Source: an uncultured Methanosarcinales archaeon
Lineage (GTDB): Archaea; Nanobdellota; Nanobdellia; Woesearchaeales; DATGWN01
Direction of reading: 5' to 3'
Assembly (NCBI GenBank): GCA_964557345.1
Contig: CAZKZU010000004.1
Span: 1-57,803 of the forward strand
DNA length: 57,803 bases
Under the pieces are notes generated by a model. That model had not been told where the DNA came from and made no database searches. It saw nothing but the letters and a program-made list of their open reading frames with translations. The position numbers and the translations under genes were made by a program. This document shows, piece by piece, positions 1,215-46,390 of the stretch; within the stretch, counting starts at the first letter, position 1; every line of letters starts with the position of its first letter.

Positions 1215-1643
1215 TTATTTTAATCCATAAAATAACTTTATACATTCATCTTGAATCAGATTCATTTTTAACGAATTTTTTGGGGAAGCCCAAACATAAT
1301 CTTTGTGTTCTTTTAGGTTTATTGTTATTTCTGGCTTTTTCTTTAAAACTAAATGAAATATGTGATATGTAAAGTCATAAGTAGAATAACGCACATAAAC
1401 TTTGCCAAAATATGTAACATTATCTTTTGATGCATCGTAATTAGTTTCTTCTTTAATTTCTCTTATAATTGCAGCAGTTGCACTTTCTCCTTCGTCAATT
1501 TTTCCTGCAGGAACGCCTAAAGTATTACCTTCAGCCTTATGATCTTGTCGATGAAGTAGAAGAATTTCCCCATTATGTTCCATGAAACAGCTAACTATTT
1601 CAAATTTAGGATTAAAGTCTTTTGGTACAGATTCGTAAATCAT
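1215..1643 (-). CDS. NUDIX hydrolase
   Basis: Nudix box PAGKIDEGESATAAIIREIKEET. Confidence 0.9.
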   Translation of the reverse strand: MIYESVPKDFNPKFEIVSCFMEHNGEILLLHRQDHKAEGNTLGVPAGKIDEGESATAAIIREIKEETNYDASKDNVTYFGKVYVRYSTYDFTYHIFHLVLKKKPEITINLKEHKDYVWASPKNSLKMNLIQDECIKLFYGLK

Positions 1644-1711
1644 AAGTTTAAAAGAATATGTTGGTTAAAAAAGGTTTCTAAAAGTTTAAACTATATTTTT
1701 TAATAATTTAT

Positions 1712-2848
1712 TTATTCTAATACGGTTTTTGCAATAGCTAATCCAACAATATTTTTTTGATAACCGATATCTCGAAGTAAAGATGCGGTACATCTCATTG
1801 CAGTTCCAGTTGTTATAACGTCGTCAAGTAGAATAATATTATCTACGCTTAAATCTAAATTATATGCTGGATCTGCGGAGTTAACTAGTATACCTAATGT
1901 GCCAATATTTTTATTTCCCCCTCTAATTCCTGTTGTATGCGCTTCAGGAACTGGTTTTAATCTATAGATATTTCTGCCTGGACTTTTATCATTCAATAAA
2001 TAGGCAATTCGGTAATTAAGATCAGTAAGATATGCATATTCAGGAAGAGAGTTAGGTAAACCAATAACTCTTGTTGATCCTTTTAGATCTAGCGATTTAA
2101 TTTTATCAATAATTTGATTGTATAGTAAATTAACCGAAGGTAATAAGACTGCACCACTTTTTATTCTTCCATTGTAATAATAAGCGTCAGTTTGATTTTT
2201 TTGTATTTCATCCCAGGAATGGTCTTTTACTTTTTTATAAGCTAGTATAATTCGAGACCCAGATAAATCAAATTTTGGACTTCCCCATCGATAATAATCT
2301 CTTATATGGTGAACTGGAATATCAGTTGAATTCAATCTGTTTAAAATAACATGATTTTCAATTTTAAATGGAACATAAGATAAATTTTGTGAAAGTATAT
2401 TCTCTAATTCACTTGAATTTTTTGCTATTGCATTTGGTTGTGCCTTATTTATTTGTGCTTCTGGAAAAAATGAGCCTTCAGTAATTATTATGCTTGGTAT
2501 TTTTTGTTCATGTGCAAATAACGCATCAAGTGGCTCATCTCCAATAAATATAGAATTTTTATCTAGTCGTAGATGAGAACAAGGTTTACTCGCACTTCCA
2601 AATACAGACACATTTGGAAGATTGTGCTTTTTCATCATAGCCAGTGCATAATCCTCAGGACTATTTGTCACAATAACTGCATCATTTTTTAATTCTTGTA
2701 AAAGATTATGAATTCCAGGACTAATAATATTAGTTTTTACAGAGTTAGGATTAGCTATCAAGAAAGCTTTTCCTGCAGCATTTTTCATGTATGGTCTTAA
2801 GTGTCGAGTATTAATTAGAGTACCATCTAAATCAAAATAATATTTCAT
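1712..2848 (-). CDS. HAD hydrolase + phosphoribosyltransferase (ComF-like) fusion; ShosT-like toxin
   Basis: N-terminal HAD motifs FDLDGTL, VTN, KP and IGD; C-terminal PRPP-binding motif IILLDDVITTGTAM. Confidence 0.8.
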   Translation of the reverse strand: MKYYFDLDGTLINTRHLRPYMKNAAGKAFLIANPNSVKTNIISPGIHNLLQELKNDAVIVTNSPEDYALAMMKKHNLPNVSVFGSASKPCSHLRLDKNSIFIGDEPLDALFAHEQKIPSIIITEGSFFPEAQINKAQPNAIAKNSSELENILSQNLSYVPFKIENHVILNRLNSTDIPVHHIRDYYRWGSPKFDLSGSRIILAYKKVKDHSWDEIQKNQTDAYYYNGRIKSGAVLLPSVNLLYNQIIDKIKSLDLKGSTRVIGLPNSLPEYAYLTDLNYRIAYLLNDKSPGRNIYRLKPVPEAHTTGIRGGNKNIGTLGILVNSADPAYNLDLSVDNIILLDDVITTGTAMRCTASLLRDIGYQKNIVGLAIAKTVLE

Positions 2849-2854
2849 AATGTT

Positions 2855-3712
2855 TTATTTTGCACCCCGTATTAAGCCATGATCTTCCCAATTGTAATTA
2901 TTTGTCCAAGTTATTTCTGGAATGAAATTTCCTCTCATCGCATAAAGTGGTCTTCCAAAATTTTGGGCTTCATGAATTGCATTTTGAGTTCCACCTTTAT
3001 CTAAAGTTTTAATAACTAAAACTCCTTTATTTGCAAGTGCAACAGTTGTTTGATTTCGTTTTTTGAAATTTAGTGGTTGATGAAATCTATAATCTAAAAA
3101 TCGATCTATTCCAATTGGAAATTGACTTATTAGTAAATGATCTCTAGCGATAGTTTCTTGTAATTCTTCATTTTCTTTTGGATAATACTTGTTTATTGGT
3201 GTACCAAGTACTGCAATTGTACCAGTAGAAAGTCCAGCTCTATGAGCAAGAGTATCACATCCTAATGCTAATCCACTAACTATAACATAATTCTTTTTTA
3301 CTATTTGAGCTAATACATTATTTGCATCTTTTAATTCGTTTTCTGATAAAGGAGCTCTTGTTCCAACTACAGCAATTGAATCACGTTTTGTTAAATCCAA
3401 ATTTCCACGATAATATATTACAGGAGTTGTTTCTGCTCTTAATTTTAGAAAAGAAGGGTAATTGTCATCGTTAATTGTTGCAAATTTGTATTCTAAATCT
3501 AGTTTTTCTATATACTTTTCTGCTTTTTTTAGTTTTTCCGCTATATCTTCAGACGGAGGAGTTATTTTGAGTTCTTTATATGCTGATTCAAAACTACCAT
3601 ATTTAGTAAGTAAAAATCTTAGATCATGATTGTTTTTTATTGTTGCAATAGTTTGAGGTTTAGAACAAGCTAATATTGCAAGATGAAAATAAGTTTCAGT
3701 TTTAAAATCCAT
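2855..3712 (-). CDS. DprA/Smf (SLOG) family protein; ShosA-like
   Basis: YP..L...P.V.YYRGN, IAVVGTR, IVSGLALGCDTLAH, YYPKEN..LQ, F..RN and GGT motifs. No C-terminal wHTH. Confidence 0.9.
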   Translation of the reverse strand: MDFKTETYFHLAILACSKPQTIATIKNNHDLRFLLTKYGSFESAYKELKITPPSEDIAEKLKKAEKYIEKLDLEYKFATINDDNYPSFLKLRAETTPVIYYRGNLDLTKRDSIAVVGTRAPLSENELKDANNVLAQIVKKNYVIVSGLALGCDTLAHRAGLSTGTIAVLGTPINKYYPKENEELQETIARDHLLISQFPIGIDRFLDYRFHQPLNFKKRNQTTVALANKGVLVIKTLDKGGTQNAIHEAQNFGRPLYAMRGNFIPEITWTNNYNWEDHGLIRGAK

Positions 3713-3786: not shown

Positions 3787-4791
3787 TCAGACCTTTTTAA
3801 TAGTTTCCGGATACATAATATCGACAATATAAATAGCTAAATTTCTTGATTTTCCTTTATCTGGGAACATATGCATTTTAATTCCTGGAACGGTATTTAC
3901 TTCTAATATTCTATACATGCTTGGAGTTTGCGGTAATAATATGTCTTTTGTCATGAAATCTATTCCAGCATATGGAAGGCCATGAAATTGTTTTAATGCT
4001 TTTTTTGCTATCTCTAATACTGAGGGATGAATCTTATCAGTAAAGTCTTCACACGTGCCTCCATGAGCAACATTAGAATTATGTCTTAGATATATTTTTT
4101 CGCCTGATTTTGGCACATACGATAAATCAATTTGACTTTTGGCAAGGTATTTTATTACTACGTCATCTAGTTGTATTGGACAAAGAGAGGTCTTTTTAGG
4201 ATCACGTTTTTTTGTTTCAATATTTGCAAGTGTTTTAATATTGTGCTTTCCATCACCAATAATATGGCTTGGATCTCTATGTAAAACTGCATAATCTCCT
4301 TTTTTTGTTACAAACACACGATATTCTTTTCCTTCGAATTGTTCTTCAACCAAAAATGGCCGTTTCCCTATAGAAGATACAACACTATCAATCCCTGCTT
4401 TAACATCACAAAGATTTTCTAAATCCATGTTTACATCATTTCCATGAGATCCAAATACTGGCTTGACGACAATTGGAAAACCTAAACTTTGTGCATATAT
4501 CAATGCATCATCAATGTCATCCTTATTAAATTGCATTCCTTTAACTACGCTAATCCCAGCATGTTGCAATATTAATTTTGTTTTATATTTATCACCAGCT
4601 ATAACAGATGCCGGATATGGATTAATAGAAGAATCCCTATCTAAAATAAATTCTTTGTGCCCTTTGAATTTTGCTTCTAACCATTCTTCTTTTAGTGAAA
4701 TTACTTTTACATCAACGTTTCTTCTTTGAAGCTCTAATACAAGTAATCTTTGATTCGTGTGCAATTCCGCCAATTGTTTTTTGTTCAACAT
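3787..4791 (-). CDS. ATP-grasp ligase (cyanophycin-synthetase/GshF-type ATP-grasp domain, stand-alone)
   Basis: DKYKTK, PIVVKPVFGSHG, EEQFEGKEYR, IGDGK, SNVAHGG, YAGIDFM, ILEVNTVPG. Confidence 0.88.
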   Translation of the reverse strand: MLNKKQLAELHTNQRLLVLELQRRNVDVKVISLKEEWLEAKFKGHKEFILDRDSSINPYPASVIAGDKYKTKLILQHAGISVVKGMQFNKDDIDDALIYAQSLGFPIVVKPVFGSHGNDVNMDLENLCDVKAGIDSVVSSIGKRPFLVEEQFEGKEYRVFVTKKGDYAVLHRDPSHIIGDGKHNIKTLANIETKKRDPKKTSLCPIQLDDVVIKYLAKSQIDLSYVPKSGEKIYLRHNSNVAHGGTCEDFTDKIHPSVLEIAKKALKQFHGLPYAGIDFMTKDILLPQTPSMYRILEVNTVPGIKMHMFPDKGKSRNLAIYIVDIMYPETIKKV

Positions 4792-4794
4792 TTC

Positions 4795-5316
4795 TTAATT
4801 TCTAGACTCACTACTAGTATTTCTACTTTCAGATGAAGTATTCTTTGGAGTTTTCACATATTTTACTTGTTGCCTACTTTCAGATGCGTCAACTCTACTT
4901 TCTGAAGATGAAACTTTTTTAATTGAAACTACTACGGGGCTACTTTCAGATGGTTCTCTTGATTCACTTGAAACTGTTGGAGCTTTAGCATATCCTTTTT
5001 TTGGCAAGTGCGGAATTTTTCCTTGATACATATCTTCATGTAAAATAATTTTATCAATGCCAGCATAAGGTTGAATTTTGATTAATCTTCCAAGAGGATT
5101 TGGTAAATCATCTAATCTACTTCTGATATGACTTGCATCATAACCATTAGCTCCGATTCCCTTATCTAATCCAAAAACGTGAAGTGTTGTTCCTTTTTTC
5201 TCTACCCAATATTTAGTAGTTTCTCTTAAATATAAAGGCATATTCGTTACAAAGTCTACACATGCAGCTATATCTTTTGCACCATATTGTGCAACTAATT
5301 CAAATAATTGTTTCAT
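4795..5316 (-). CDS. Small protein with C-terminal repeated SES(R) motifs; candidate multi-core precursor peptide
   Basis: The C-terminal ~60 aa contain VSSESR, PSESS, SSSESR, ASESR, TSSESRN and TSSESRN*. A GGAGG Shine-Dalgarno lies upstream, and the stop is 3 bp from the ATP-grasp start. Confidence 0.6.
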   Translation of the reverse strand: MKQLFELVAQYGAKDIAACVDFVTNMPLYLRETTKYWVEKKGTTLHVFGLDKGIGANGYDASHIRSRLDDLPNPLGRLIKIQPYAGIDKIILHEDMYQGKIPHLPKKGYAKAPTVSSESREPSESSPVVVSIKKVSSSESRVDASESRQQVKYVKTPKNTSSESRNTSSESRN

Positions 5317-5346: not shown

Positions 5347-6318
5347 TTATTTTTGTAGTATTACTACTGCATCTTTTTGATCGGGAATTACTCCTTTAAA
5401 CATTAATTCGCTATAATCCATCCTCAAAGATGAAAAGATTTCTTTCCTTTTTTTCGGAATGTCAATTCCTGATCTGAACCAAGTATCTTTGTCCGAAGAA
5501 GTTCTTGCATTATATATGTATGCTGCGCAAATAATTCCATTAGGTTTTAAACATTTTTTTAAAGGTTTAATTGCAAAATTTGCAAAAGCCGTTAAATGGT
5601 CATTATACATCGGATACATGTATTCTGCATAATCTGCTATATTTGAAAGTAATATAACATCAAATTTTTTATCTAAACTTCTAGAAAGTTGTTCTAATTT
5701 TTGACATTGCCATTCTGTTTTTCTTAAATTTTGGCTCGCTTGTAGGTAGGACTGTGCAGAATGAAGATATAAATTACTTGATAATGAACCTGCATTGTCG
5801 TTGGTTGTGTCATTTTTAAACAAAGGAGAACTTCTCATTGATGCGCCATAATTATTAAAGAAATTATATGCTGTATCCCAAAAATTAGCACAAAGTACCG
5901 TCAAATCATTTTTAATCGAAAGGTATGCGTCATGATGAAATGCATCTTCTCCCTTTAAAAAAAAGCTTAAATAATCTTGATAAGAAAATCTCTGCAATCC
6001 CACTATTTTCAATTCAGTAATAAATGCAGATAATCGATTTGAATCAAAACTCATCACTTCTTTTGCTTTTAATAAATGTGAATTAATGATTTGATCTCCG
6101 GATGCACTTACTGTTAAAATACTTTTATCCCTAATATCTAATAGCGGAAAATATCCTGCTAAATTTTCTGTTGCAAATGGATATATGGCACTATGTTCTG
6201 AAAACTTTTTTTCTAAAAGGTTTATTTCAAAATCATCATCAAATAACTGTTTGAATCTAATACGGGCTAATTCAGAATCTTTAAGATCAATTCCCTTAAG
6301 CCAGCTTTTTTGTTTCAT
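5347..6318 (-). CDS. DUF3419/BtaA-like class I SAM-dependent transferase (methyl- or 3-amino-3-carboxypropyl transferase)
   Basis: YPFATENL..Y, ILTVSASGDQ, FDSN and FDVILLSNIADY. Start placed at ATG 6318, an ATGA overlap with the upstream stop. Confidence 0.65.
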   Translation of the reverse strand: MKQKSWLKGIDLKDSELARIRFKQLFDDDFEINLLEKKFSEHSAIYPFATENLAGYFPLLDIRDKSILTVSASGDQIINSHLLKAKEVMSFDSNRLSAFITELKIVGLQRFSYQDYLSFFLKGEDAFHHDAYLSIKNDLTVLCANFWDTAYNFFNNYGASMRSSPLFKNDTTNDNAGSLSSNLYLHSAQSYLQASQNLRKTEWQCQKLEQLSRSLDKKFDVILLSNIADYAEYMYPMYNDHLTAFANFAIKPLKKCLKPNGIICAAYIYNARTSSDKDTWFRSGIDIPKKRKEIFSSLRMDYSELMFKGVIPDQKDAVVILQK

Positions 6319-7355
6319 CTTTTTCTCACCGGACAACCAAAATATCCTTGATGTTTTAAGCTGTCTACATTATCAAGATGAAGTTTTATAGATGGAGAAT
6401 TTAATACTTCTTCAAATGATGCTTGTTTTAATGTTAATTTTGATTTGTATGCAGGCTTTTCTTCAACTAGCCAACTACAAGGAGAAATTTGTCCTATATT
6501 GTTTATGAAAAGTAATTTTTGTATACCAGGGCAAGTTTTATTGTTACAAGTACTACTAGTATTTGGATCTTGAACTACACTTTCAGTAAAACTATGAGAT
6601 ACTTTTATTTTGCCTGAATATGTTTTCGCTAACTGTTCTATTTCGGATTTCAAACTTTCTGATGGTCGCATAGAGATTCTTGGATCATATTTTTTCATAT
6701 TTCCTGATGGATCCATGTATGAGAAAACTATCTCTCTTACCCCCAGATTTGCAACAGATTCGATAGTATCTTGAATGTGATTTTCACTTCCTCTGAAAAT
6801 TAATGAACCAATTCTGACATATATTCCTTCGTCAACAAGATATTTTACACCCCTGATTGTTCTTTCATAAGTGTTTTTGTTTCTAACTGATTCATGAACT
6901 CCTTGATTATGGCCATCAATACTCGAATGCACCATTTTAAGTTTTAATGCTGATAACATTTTTGCTTTTTCAGGAGTTATTAGTGATGCATTAGTTGAAA
7001 GATCTGAAATAAATGCTAACTCATTTGCTTTTTCAAGAATTTGAAATAAATCTTTTCTAATAAATGGTTCTCCTCCAGTAAATTTAATATGTGAGAATCC
7101 TTTTGCTTTCAGTCCTTCAAGTGTTGAAAACATTTCCTCTGTAGTTAATTCTTCTTCTGGTTTTGAATGAGTAATACTAAATCCGCAGTAATCGCAAGTA
7201 TAATTACATCGATCAGTTAATTCCCAGACAACACGTCCTCCAGTTTCTGGAATTCTAAATACGCAGAATGGATATCTTGCTATTTCTTTATCTTGCAAAT
7301 TATTTCCATTTTGATTTTGCAATTGATTATTTTTTTGATTTTGTTGGTCTATCAT
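6315..7355 (-). CDS. Radical SAM protein with C-terminal SPASM/twitch-like cysteines
   Basis: CNYTCDYC (CX3CX2C), FTGGEPF, STNA and SIDG; C-terminal CPG...I...GQISPC...GCP. Confidence 0.9.
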   Translation of the reverse strand: MIDQQNQKNNQLQNQNGNNLQDKEIARYPFCVFRIPETGGRVVWELTDRCNYTCDYCGFSITHSKPEEELTTEEMFSTLEGLKAKGFSHIKFTGGEPFIRKDLFQILEKANELAFISDLSTNASLITPEKAKMLSALKLKMVHSSIDGHNQGVHESVRNKNTYERTIRGVKYLVDEGIYVRIGSLIFRGSENHIQDTIESVANLGVREIVFSYMDPSGNMKKYDPRISMRPSESLKSEIEQLAKTYSGKIKVSHSFTESVVQDPNTSSTCNNKTCPGIQKLLFINNIGQISPCSWLVEEKPAYKSKLTLKQASFEEVLNSPSIKLHLDNVDSLKHQGYFGCPVRKR

Positions 7356-7386: not shown

Positions 7387-8127
7387 TTAATTTATCGTTG
7401 TAATAATTTTTTCTAATAATCTATGATGAGCTTCTGATTTAGGGTTATTAGTAGTATCAAATGTATAAACATTTCCTTTTTCAAAAATTGCTTGTAGTAA
7501 TCTTAGGCAGAGTATATGAGTATTAAATTTCTTAGAAGAGCTAATGCCTTTTTGTATTTGTGATAAAGTCAAATTACTTGATTGAAGAAGTCTTTTTACT
7601 TGTATATCATAATCACAACTTATAGCTAGATAATTATCATTAGTTAAATTATTAAAACCATCATGCTCATGAAGTGTTGGCCATTCTACAAGGAATAAGC
7701 CAGTTTTGTCTTTTTTAATATTTTGTATATAATCTGAAAAAGGTTTATTCATTACAGTATTGAAAAGCTTTTGAATGTCATAACTACTTTGTGTGTCAAA
7801 AAGAATTTGTCTAAATGCAATTCTATCAATTGATGTGTCTGCTTTTAGTATTTCGGTTCCAACTTCTTTTGCTAATTTTTGACGTATGGGATAGTATTGA
7901 GGATTGTTACTTAATACTTCTATTCTTATATCATCTAATTTTATGTGAGTTACATTTAATTTCAAACTATTTCCTATTTGATAAAGCTGATTACTAGTGT
8001 AGCTTTTTCCACTACCCATTGTTCCAACAACTCCTAACATGTATGTACCACTATTAATTTTTGAAATATAATCCTGTTCAATTGTTTTTCCCAAATCTGT
8101 GAGGCGTACTTTTTTGTTTGCACTCAT
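7387..8127 (-). CDS. Dephospho-CoA-kinase-like P-loop kinase
   Basis: GVVGTMGSGKS Walker A, LDD, IDR..R..LF, VEWPTL.E, Q.KRL. Start at 8127, an ATGA overlap with the upstream gene. Confidence 0.7.
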   Translation of the reverse strand: MSANKKVRLTDLGKTIEQDYISKINSGTYMLGVVGTMGSGKSYTSNQLYQIGNSLKLNVTHIKLDDIRIEVLSNNPQYYPIRQKLAKEVGTEILKADTSIDRIAFRQILFDTQSSYDIQKLFNTVMNKPFSDYIQNIKKDKTGLFLVEWPTLHEHDGFNNLTNDNYLAISCDYDIQVKRLLQSSNLTLSQIQKGISSSKKFNTHILCLRLLQAIFEKGNVYTFDTTNNPKSEAHHRLLEKIITTIN

Positions 8128-44939: not shown

Positions 44940-45674
44940 ATGGAAACAAATGATTTTTCAGGAATTATCGGCGGAAAAAGATATGCACTTGTTGCAGAAC
45001 TAATCCCTCATTTTAAAGAAATGCAAGAAAATATTGCATATTTTGCAACTTGTAAAGCAGTATGCACTATAGGAACATACAAAGTACTAGAAGTCGGATG
45101 TGGACCTGGACCTACTACTGATAAGCTTTTGCAAACTAGAGAGAATGTCAATGTTACAGCAGTTGATATTGAAAAACAAATGATTGATGAAGCAAAAATA
45201 AATCTTGCAAAATATGGAGGGAGGGTTAATTTTGTATTAGAGGATATGTTAAAATTTCTACCAACAATCAAAGACAATACTTATGATTCATTTGCATCGG
45301 GTTGGACATTACACAATCTGAATTCCACTCAAAGACACCAAGCATTAAGTGAAATTTATAGAGTATTAAAACCAGGAGCGCTATTTGTAAACGGAGATAA
45401 ATATGCTCAAGATGATGTCAGAAAACATAAGAGAGATTACAAACAATTCAAAGATTGCCTTACAAAAATGGATCAGAAATATGGCGATGCAGAGTGGACT
45501 AAACAATGGATTGAACACTATAATTTCGACGAGAAACCAGAAATTATTATGTTTGAAAATAAGGCTATTGAAGAAATGAGTCAAATTGGCTTTGTAAAAG
45601 TAAAAAATACTTTTAGAAGACAAATGGAATCAATTGTTGTTGCATATAAACCAAAAAAATATATGAGGGAATAA
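44940..45674 (+). CDS. Class I SAM-dependent methyltransferase (paralog 1)
   Basis: VLEVGCGPG, TAVD...MI, SGWTLHN, IYRVLKPG. Confidence 0.9.
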   Translation: METNDFSGIIGGKRYALVAELIPHFKEMQENIAYFATCKAVCTIGTYKVLEVGCGPGPTTDKLLQTRENVNVTAVDIEKQMIDEAKINLAKYGGRVNFVLEDMLKFLPTIKDNTYDSFASGWTLHNLNSTQRHQALSEIYRVLKPGALFVNGDKYAQDDVRKHKRDYKQFKDCLTKMDQKYGDAEWTKQWIEHYNFDEKPEIIMFENKAIEEMSQIGFVKVKNTFRRQMESIVVAYKPKKYMRE

Positions 45675-45676
45675 AA

Positions 45677-46390
45677 ATGGAAACACATGATTTTTCAGGA
45701 GTAATTGGAGGACGAGGTTATGCAATGTTTGAACAAGCATATTCGCACTTCAAAGAAATTCAAGAAGCAATTGTAGATCACGTTCAATTTTGGTTTGACG
45801 CCACAAATAAATATCAAGTGCTTGAACTAGGGTGTGGACCTGGACCGACTACAAATGCGTTATTGCAAAAAAGAAAAAATATTTTTGTAACTGCTGTCGA
45901 TAATGAAAAACAAATGATTGACGAAGCAAAAGTTAATCTTGCTAAATATGGAGAAAGAGTAAACTTTGTATTAGAGGATATGTTAACATATTTGAAAAAA
46001 GTTCCTGATAATACTTTTGATGCTTGCGCATCTGGATGGACTTTACATAATTTGGAAAAAACAGAACGACATAAAGTTCTCGAACAGATTTATCGAGTAT
46101 TAAAACAACCCGGATTTTTTGTTAATGGAGATAAATATGCTCAGGAGAATTTACTAGATCACAAAAAAGCTTACGACTGGTCAATTAATTCATTAAAAGC
46201 AATTGGTAAAAAATACAACGACGAAAATTGGGCAAATGAATTGATAAAACACATGGAATACGACGAGAGGCCTGAGATCAGCATGCCACTTGAAGATGCA
46301 CTTAAAGAAATGGAAGATATTGGATTTAAACATACATCATGCCTTGATAGAATACAAATGGAAGCTATTGTTGTAGGAATGAAAAAATAA
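45677..46390 (+). CDS. Class I SAM-dependent methyltransferase (paralog 2)
   Basis: VLELGCGPG; highly similar to the upstream paralog. Confidence 0.9.
   Translation: METHDFSGVIGGRGYAMFEQAYSHFKEIQEAIVDHVQFWFDATNKYQVLELGCGPGPTTNALLQKRKNIFVTAVDNEKQMIDEAKVNLAKYGERVNFVLEDMLTYLKKVPDNTFDACASGWTLHNLEKTERHKVLEQIYRVLKQPGFFVNGDKYAQENLLDHKKAYDWSINSLKAIGKKYNDENWANELIKHMEYDERPEISMPLEDALKEMEDIGFKHTSCLDRIQMEAIVVGMKK

Follow-up and report, generated by a model that had tools for sequence, protein, structure and literature searches.

Ribosomally synthesized and post-translationally modified peptides (RiPPs) include multi-core precursors, for example those with triceptide-type repeats of a short motif, that are tailored by radical S-adenosylmethionine (SAM)/SPASM and B12-radical-SAM enzymes. 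Diphthamide is formed on a single His of EF-2 by aminocarboxypropyl transfer from SAM, methylation and ATP-dependent amidation or ligation (Dph2, Dph5 and Dph6). The LysW system uses a LysX/ArgX-type ATP-grasp ligase together with a zinc-ribbon carrier that has a C-terminal Glu, and cyanophycin synthetase (CphA) consists of three domains: N, G (ATP-grasp) and M (Mur-ligase-like). In the betaine-lipid pathway, the hydroxyl of diacylglycerol receives the 3-amino-3-carboxypropyl group of SAM from BtaA, the founding DUF3419 enzyme, after which BtaB adds three methyl groups to the amine; Bta1 is a fusion of BtaA and BtaB (PMC10685587, part of the article). Here, we describe a gene cluster in a 57,803-nucleotide stretch of DNA (the window: contig CAZKZU010000004.1 of assembly GCA_964557345.1) from an uncultured archaeon that is deposited as Methanosarcinales and placed in Woesearchaeales by GTDB. 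In this cluster a 173-amino-acid (aa) protein with repeats of the tripeptide Glu-Ser-Arg (ESR) is encoded among genes for radical SAM, kinase, BtaA-like and ATP-grasp enzymes.

We find that the ESR array occurs together with the same six enzyme families both in DPANN archaea and in gut Firmicutes, and that the remainder of the protein carrying the array is non-homologous between archaea and bacteria. The 173-aa ESR protein is probably a dedicated multi-site substrate of a conserved post-translational modification pathway, in which a [G/S]-E-S-R unit is recognized and modified, and the array is likely to sit on a disordered end of a small protein that presents several copies to the enzymes. Judged by sequence comparison, the ESR system suggests a way of modifying proteins or peptides that has not been described before. 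Nothing relevant to it was found in the literature open to full-text search, which leaves subscription journals and supplements outside.

The ESR protein and its archaeal relatives

The ESR gene lies at 4795..5316 on the minus strand. A GGAGG stands 8 nt 5' of its ATG and its stop codon is 3 nt from the ATG of an ATP-grasp gene, in agreement with an initial annotation made from the sequence alone, which had noted a Shine-Dalgarno site and the adjoining ATP-grasp gene. An N-terminal domain (N-domain; residues 1-93, with conserved L7, L30, H46, I54 and H93), in appearance an unremarkable small domain, is followed by a tail (residues 94-173) in which Ser, Arg, Glu, Lys and Val are abundant and which ends ...PTVSSESREPSESSPVVVSIKKVSSSESRVDASESRQQVKYVKTPKNTSSESRNTSSESRN*. 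Of the six S-E-S-(R/S) cores recognized initially, five are borne out as E-S-R and one as E-S-S, and the array indeed closes with two tandem TSSESRN heptapeptides, Asn being the final residue before the stop. With coordinates derived by hand from the open reading frame (ORF), the motif array spans 4801..4965, with ESR codons at 4957-4965, 4894-4902, 4873-4881, 4822-4830 and 4801-4809 and those of the ESS variant at 4939-4947; the codon of the final Asn occupies 4798-4800 and the stop 4795-4797, all on the minus strand. When the tail was shuffled 2000 times the mean was 0.13 ESR compared with 5 observed, and 0/2000 shuffles reached 5. No Pfam, NCBIfam or PADLOC model matches the ESR proteins, and in a profile search against the PDB the best match is at chance level (E 1.6).

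From the differing codons of the copies it had been argued that selection acts on the peptide and that recent slippage is not the cause. Part of this argument stands, given that Tandem Repeats Finder detects no tandem repeat in the DNA of the array and that both TCN and AGY codons are used for the motif Ser. However, four of the six motif sites have a 15-nt word in common at an identity of at least 87%, and, apart from the first and the last copy (tca/aga, and tct/aga with gag), none uses clearly different codons. The strongest evidence for selection on the peptide comes from the relatives, because these retain the same motif at an N-domain identity to the window protein of 28-36%. Freshwater and lake metagenomes of four or more studies contain DNA near-identical to the window. 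Contigs of two lake-water studies, at low depth, differ from the window at two positions in the tail-coding part, which by hand translation are a synonymous change at Ile132 and E121A, the residue following the first motif; this part contains no indels and the ESR codons are all untouched. A single 208-nt contig from an RNA library (4713-4920) spans the ESR-gene stop and the ATP-grasp start and is the sole piece over a 3.6-kb stretch, but the library may contain DNA and the contig is no proof of transcription.

A word-index protein search with the window ESR protein returned only the protein itself. An exhaustive HMMER scan of 1.84 billion representatives (E ≤0.001) gave 22 matches. Besides the query, these are 18 small proteins with lengths of 127-202 aa and three long ones (739-3163 aa), the latter matching over many short stretches and taken for putative low-complexity matches. 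The 18 small homologues have N-domains that are approximately 30-38% identical, and ESR motifs are present in the tails of 16 of them. Together with six further members from genome searches, this results in 25 distinct archaeal-type sequences, with 129 ESR motifs in their tails and none in their N-domains. Of the 129 motifs, 99 are preceded by Gly and 20 by Ser, which gives the consensus [G/S]-E-S-R, and near-variants are scarce across the 25 members (ESS 6, ESK 5, ESA 4, ESN 4). Twelve of the 25 proteins end exactly in ESR, and in eight more the motif is at most two residues from the end (followed by W, Y, WW, N or R), which makes 20/25. The observed ESR count was reached by 0/2000 tail shuffles in 20 of the 25 members and by 1/2000 in two members; P0016 has one motif only. 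By these counts, the ESR motif is the hallmark of the protein family.

Conserved gene clusters in archaea and bacteria

All cluster genes of the window are on the minus strand and either overlap or are separated by short gaps; terminator-like sites were found on that strand neither along the cluster nor between the ATP-grasp and the downstream genes. Upstream of the ESR gene, the series of cluster enzymes begins with a 796-aa fusion (8124..10514) of an NMNAT/NadD-like HIGH-type nucleotidyltransferase (approximately residues 50-280) to a B12-binding radical SAM enzyme (approximately residues 340-755), the best NCBIfam neighbours of which include protein Gln and P-/C-methyltransferases. It is followed by a 249-aa CoaE-like P-loop kinase with an intact P-loop (7387..8136; GTMGSGKS), a 346-aa radical SAM enzyme of the SPASM/twitch type (6315..7355) and a 329-aa DUF3419 protein (5347..6336), a BtaA-like SAM-dependent transferase with a Pfam score of 50.9 bits at a cut-off of 28.2. 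The SPASM domain of the 346-aa enzyme is detected in its orthologues, and the enzyme has no RRE-sized N-terminal extension. No solved structural relative of the DUF3419 protein was found by sequence. Downstream of the ESR gene is a stand-alone, 334-aa ATP-grasp ligase (3787..4791). A 264-aa CinA/PncC-like protein (10533..11327, minus strand) is an accessory that adjoins the cluster in two other archaeal loci. None of the cluster enzymes reaches a curated NCBIfam cut-off.

In sequence, the ATP-grasp ligase is a homologue of both cyanophycin synthetase, of which it corresponds to the G domain, and GshF, of which it corresponds to the glutathione-synthetase half. Against the PDB, homology extends over the whole protein (7lgm, E 5e-45; 3ln7, E 2e-32). 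The NCBIfam cyanophycin synthetase model TIGR02068 is matched at E 4e-67, with 227 bits at an equivalog cut-off of 850 and only approximately residues 209-474 of the 862 model positions aligned. Among the best 25 of 32 NCBIfam matches, the top ones are cyanophycin synthetase, GshF and N-acetylglutaminylglutamine synthetase, and rimK_fam scores 48 bits at a cut-off of 143; LysX_arch scores 44.7 bits at a cut-off of 275.6. The initial annotation had cautioned that the ligase is cyanophycin/GshF-like and not RimK-like, and that the nucleotidyltransferase is HIGH-type and not MccB/ThiF-type. Both cautions are justified by these scores and by a NadD/HIGH-type match.

Across the archaeal clusters the conserved order is B12-radical-SAM, CoaE-like kinase, radical-SAM/SPASM, DUF3419, ESR protein, ATP-grasp and class I methyltransferase. 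It is complete in six loci (G013, G238, G665, L020, L023 and L030), whereas G373 has all six enzymes and the ESR gene with the ESR gene placed first, and in G335, G173 and G493 cluster parts are present as far as the contigs extend. Nearly always the ESR gene lies between DUF3419 and ATP-grasp, with stops and starts overlapping or abutting, and in most clusters the methyltransferase comes directly after the ATP-grasp. The ATP-grasp is 58-67% identical to that of the window, compared with 28-36% for the ESR N-domain. In L023, a single-cell Nanoarchaeota genome, the ESR protein is short (7586-7999), with a truncated and divergent N-terminal part, three GESR, two GESN and the ending GGESNW. The NMNAT-like part is a separate gene in L011, L030 and L012; NMNAT-like and CinA-like genes stand separately beside the G373 and L030 clusters, and G238 has a small cytidylyltransferase-like gene. 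The archaeal hosts are DPANN, with same-order relatives labelled Woesearchaeota or Nanoarchaeota, and the system is rare and patchy (6/401 genomes sampled from the order and 3/401 from the class, the window's genome counted). The window additionally encodes NAC, TrmB and Lhr proteins, which together with the labels of its relatives mark its own host as a DPANN archaeon.

A search with the ATP-grasp revealed a second branch with an identity of approximately 50%, represented by metagenome contigs and by 27 genome loci of uncultured Clostridia, Bacilli and Mollicutes, many of them from gut samples; the bacterial homologues are unnamed in the source databases. Hidden Markov models of the six enzyme families were built from annotated loci and run on the bacterial loci. 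All six families are present in the same order in 20 of the 23 loci with enough flanking DNA, and the other three are without a detected methyltransferase only. An ESR-rich small ORF is located directly upstream of the ATP-grasp in 24/24 loci having that DNA, 22 of them found by script and two by eye (L040 and the decayed L064), with three further loci cut by contig ends. The density of ESR is 32.5 per 1000 aa, as opposed to 0.152 per 1000 aa in the 125,346 residues of the other ORFs of the same loci.

In these bacterial proteins the array is at the N-terminus. Fifteen of the 21 distinct proteins start MSESR (MSESRGGESR...), the first two motifs are invariant in 16/16 aligned Clostridial members, and the residue at position -1 is G in 58 and S in 31 of 95 motifs. 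Motif pairs are frequent at a spacing of 5-6 residues, and over the archaeal and bacterial scaffolds taken together the copy number varies from 2 to 13 and the spacers vary as well. The remainder after the array is a charged, helical-looking segment, and when the archaeal and Clostridial family profiles are compared with hhalign only 27 columns align, all of them in the array. In the Bacilli-type ESR protein at L040:8300-9200 both termini carry motifs, with MSESRNNSESR at the start and, at the other end, SSSESHNSGESRW (GESRW), an ending common to several archaeal proteins. Because bacteria have the same enzymes with a non-homologous carrier, the enzymes go with the motif and not with the domain, and because two unrelated scaffolds have the same tripeptide at opposite termini among the same six families, we infer that the enzymes act on the motif itself. 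Hence, the proposal that the N-terminal part of approximately 105 aa in the window protein is a leader or recognition domain is not supported, given the bacterial scaffold, the array-only alignment and the truncated archaeal N-terminal part. By contrast, the claim that the motif is a substrate, under selection as a peptide and tied to the enzymes, is supported at the level of homology. We looked at whether homologues are without repeats or without enzymes; both are retained, and the reading stands.

The bacterial cluster is compact, with seven genes in approximately 6 kb. Three different gene fusions occur inside the system and tie the cluster enzymes together: DUF3419 with methyltransferase (L036:2994-4583), CoaE-like kinase with radical SAM enzyme in Bacilli-type loci (for example, L035:6325-7770), and NMNAT-like with B12-radical-SAM in the window. 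Three bacterial loci (L064, L041 and L052) contain split genes, with the B12-radical-SAM, the ATP-grasp or the second radical SAM enzyme in two pieces, and the ESR ORF of L064 is just 58 aa; these clusters look like decaying copies.

Proposed modification and alternative explanations

Our best guess on the chemistry, a tentative one, is a Ser-aminocarboxypropyl or betaine-type modification that is followed by ATP-grasp ligation. The DUF3419 enzyme would move the 3-amino-3-carboxypropyl group of SAM onto the Ser hydroxyl, as BtaA does on diacylglycerol, and the class I methyltransferase would methylate the new aminocarboxypropyl group. This BtaA/BtaB logic is supported by the DUF3419-methyltransferase fusion in L036, and the two genes flank the substrate and ATP-grasp genes, one on each side. 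The aminocarboxypropylation that the initial annotation had brought in from microcin C would fit the BtaA-like gene. The ATP-grasp would then join an amine or an amino acid to the carboxylate gained in this way or, alternatively, to the Glu side chain. To our knowledge, all characterized relatives of this ATP-grasp lengthen a peptide by an amino acid through activation of its free terminal alpha-carboxylate, and the aminocarboxypropyl step is placed before ligation because an internal ESR would otherwise be without a free alpha-carboxylate. We also considered a general mechanism by C-terminal extension, with the ATP-grasp adding to ...ESR-COOH, but this is ruled out by the N-terminal bacterial arrays. 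Next in the proposed order, the B12-radical-SAM enzyme would perform C-methylation, with Arg and Glu as conceivable sites. A further step would fall to the kinase together with the second radical SAM enzyme, for which joint action is proposed because they are fused in many bacteria, and the end product would be a modified protein or released peptides. A fuller and equally speculative picture is that each ESR triad becomes a hypermodified unit: a Ser-O-homoserine-betaine-type ether, extended by the ATP-grasp, C-methylated by the B12 enzyme and, in part of the lineages, also linked to an adenine or pyridine nucleotide. Recognition would be limited to the tripeptide, so that the array would be graftable onto any scaffold, and transfer between archaea and Firmicutes would have occurred in part on mobile elements.

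Several observations weigh against a modified multi-site substrate. All the evidence is comparative, and L036 has no ESR gene within its 5.4-kb contig. Two family members, P0005 and P0011, have zero ESR; P0005 has no motif, and the tail of P0011 contains SGDENK, SGDENR and NSNDE at the same position, DEN(K/R)-type motifs that may represent a variant with altered chemistry. No PqqD/RRE-like domain, protease/peptidase or exporter/transporter is conserved across the clusters, which is atypical for RiPPs; ABC genes do occur in nine bacterial loci, at a distance of 2-4 kb and with their own GntR regulator. The DUF3419 match covers only profile positions 3-126 of 385, and the same is seen in all orthologues scanned. 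The second radical SAM enzyme is approximately as similar to the nucleotide-acting MoaA, viperin and BlsE as to peptide maturases, and given these similarities part of the pathway could have a small-molecule substrate. Lastly, the window is without the cluster methyltransferase and no orthologue was found in its 90%-complete genome (G000; best match 27% identical). The BtaA/BtaB-like pair of steps is thus incomplete in the window.

The surroundings of the clusters bear on this question. On the minus strand at 1215..3712, the window has three genes downstream of the ATP-grasp, encoding a DprA-like protein, a 378-aa protein with a PRTase C-terminal end and a NUDIX hydrolase. In PADLOC, the ShosA profile is matched by the DprA-like gene along most of its length (4e-53) and ShosT by the PRTase-end protein over the C-terminal third only (6e-8). 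These two genes (both within 1712-3712) form a Shosta-like pair, with A ahead of T, that follows immediately on the ATP-grasp gene, and the NUDIX gene (1215-1643) matches PDC-S07 at 4e-17. Beside the other ESR clusters no DprA-like or PRTase gene was found, and the three genes are probably a separate, Shosta-like module. Accessory genes that recur beside ESR clusters are NMNAT-like, CinA-like, NUDIX, Macro, HIT, HD and MazG genes. The bacterial clusters are flanked by Macro domain, NUDIX, histidine phosphatase and MazG genes (L035:10693-11226; L032:2800-4780; L044:3801-4382; L043:10843-11256) and also by a UDG-superfamily gene. These accessory genes suggest a nucleotide or ADP-ribose flavour, with a nucleotide moiety involved in some lineages. 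In four Clostridial loci (L053:2058-4591, L056, L058 and L063) the cluster is immediately preceded by genes for a Mob_Pre relaxase and a phage-type integrase, and in L017 (G665) it is followed by a DDE transposase; the system thus appears to be carried on mobile elements.

A 284-299-aa protein with a winged-helix-like N-terminal end is encoded divergently beside three archaeal clusters (L011:16734-17588, L018:3757-4611 and L012:8097-8993) and has a weak PLD-like match in L030. The 284-aa gene was rejected as a member of the system, given a 40%-identical copy elsewhere in G000 (C8:25100-25930, with one in-frame TAA). Two adjacent class I methyltransferase paralogues at 44940-46390 of the window are 27% identical to the cluster methyltransferase of the relatives and are probably unrelated to the ESR system.

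A rather unlikely alternative to a modified substrate is a carrier or scaffold, in which the Glu carboxylate, the Ser hydroxyl or the chain end of the ESR units holds an intermediate derived from an amino acid or nucleotide and a small molecule is later released, comparable to LysW carriers and pearlin scaffolds. The lack of a conserved protease or exporter and the interchangeable non-repeat domain would agree with this, as would arrays that reach the chain end (the terminal ESR of 12/25 archaeal proteins, the MSESR start of 15/21 bacterial ones), ATP-grasp relatives that extend free alpha-carboxylates, the recurrent nucleotide-handling accessory genes and a kinase of the CoaE type, the known substrate of CoaE being a nucleotide. 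However, no release hydrolase is conserved, with the CinA-like amidase-type gene in just three archaeal loci, the LysX match is far under its cut-off and a catalytic carrier needs no multiple copies per protein. A version based on C-terminal extension fails in bacteria, where the array is N-terminal and the C-terminal end is not ESR. We also regard it as unlikely that the tail is no substrate at all and serves as a disordered, charged partner (a regulator, assembly factor or nucleic-acid-binding tail) of a small-molecule pathway, possibly a mobile, nucleotide-based conflict or defence system. Charge or disorder alone would not keep an exact tripeptide on two unrelated scaffolds with variable spacers and copy numbers, which argues for enzyme recognition; the position of the ESR gene, which nearly always stands between DUF3419 and ATP-grasp, speaks against a mere partner as well. 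The Shosta-like pair and NUDIX gene in the window, the NUDIX, MazG and UDG-superfamily genes of the bacterial flanks, the integrase and Mob relaxase of four clusters, the transposase beside the G665 cluster, the patchy distribution and the viperin-profile matches of the second radical SAM enzyme all favour such a partner.

Two analogies of the initial annotation have fared less well. In a graspetide-like multi-core peptide, which was the leading idea of the initial annotation, the ATP-grasp would form Ser-Glu side-chain esters within or between ESR units, and the invariant Ser and Glu, the adjoining ATP-grasp gene and the motif pairs 5-6 residues apart, which could permit inter-motif rings, would be consistent with this. 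It is nevertheless quite improbable, given that the ligase groups with the cyanophycin synthetase G domain, GshF and N-acetylglutaminylglutamine synthetase with weak RimK-type matches, that five other conserved enzymes and the invariant Arg stay unexplained and that archaeal and bacterial substrates share no leader-type conserved region. Almost certainly wrong is a peptidyl-nucleotide of the microcin C kind, in which a heptapeptide with C-terminal Asn would be nucleotidylated and then aminocarboxypropylated. The window protein does end in TSSESRN, and both a nucleotidyltransferase domain and a BtaA-like gene are present, but the terminal Asn is seen in 1/25 family members (the window protein only), with the others ending in R, W, Y, WW or R-R, and the bacterial arrays are N-terminal. 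Furthermore, the nucleotidyltransferase is HIGH-type and absent from most clusters, and no MccB/ThiF-type Pfam match was found among the 14 ORFs of the neighbourhood.

We therefore favour the multi-site substrate. If it is right, the ESR system would represent a new class of modification of ribosomal peptides or proteins, in which recognition depends on a minimal and portable three-residue motif, would provide the first proposed protein substrate for a BtaA-like enzyme and would give a new role to a cyanophycin-synthetase-type ATP-grasp. A three-residue tag that is read by several tailoring enzymes could also serve protein engineering. The hosts, freshwater DPANN archaea and uncultured gut Clostridia and Bacilli, are hard to study, and the compact bacterial cluster makes direct testing by heterologous expression and mass spectrometry possible.

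Comparison with known systems

The resemblance to BtaA/BtaB is in the pairing of a DUF3419 enzyme with a class I methyltransferase, fused in L036 as they are in Bta1 (PMC10685587, part of the article), and in a plausible CH2-OH acceptor, Ser in the ESR system and a glycerol hydroxyl in lipids. The presumed acceptor is, however, a protein and not a lipid, the window has no partner methyltransferase and the DUF3419 proteins of the clusters match the N-terminal third of the profile only. The ATP-grasp shares sequence homology over its whole length with cyanophycin synthetase and GshF, but has neither the N and M domains of CphA nor a GshA half. As in the LysW/LysX system, a small protein with an acidic flexible end is found together with an ATP-grasp and a kinase. 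In contrast to that system, the ATP-grasp is not LysX-type, there is no zinc-ribbon carrier and no Pfam match for the ESR protein, the motifs are multiple and internal, and the radical SAM enzymes have no counterpart there. Diphthamide differs in its enzyme families and in having one His site as opposed to many ESR sites, but by analogy the order of steps proposed for the ESR system would be alike.

The multi-core RiPPs have a ribosomal product with a repeated short motif beside radical SAM enzymes, and in both cases the motif is constant and the copies and spacers vary. The ESR system differs in that it has no shared leader or RRE, the motif can be on either terminus of non-homologous scaffolds and contains no aromatic or Cys residue, and a BtaA-like transferase, a CphA-like ATP-grasp and a CoaE-like kinase are added. 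Neither a protease nor an exporter is conserved across its clusters, and matches to NCBIfam maturase models all stay below the cut-off. What appears to be new is a set of ribosomally made substrates with dedicated tailoring enzymes of this composition, with a real chance that the system lies further from known systems than these likenesses suggest. As in RiPPs generally, the gene for the putative precursor is encoded beside those of its tailoring enzymes.

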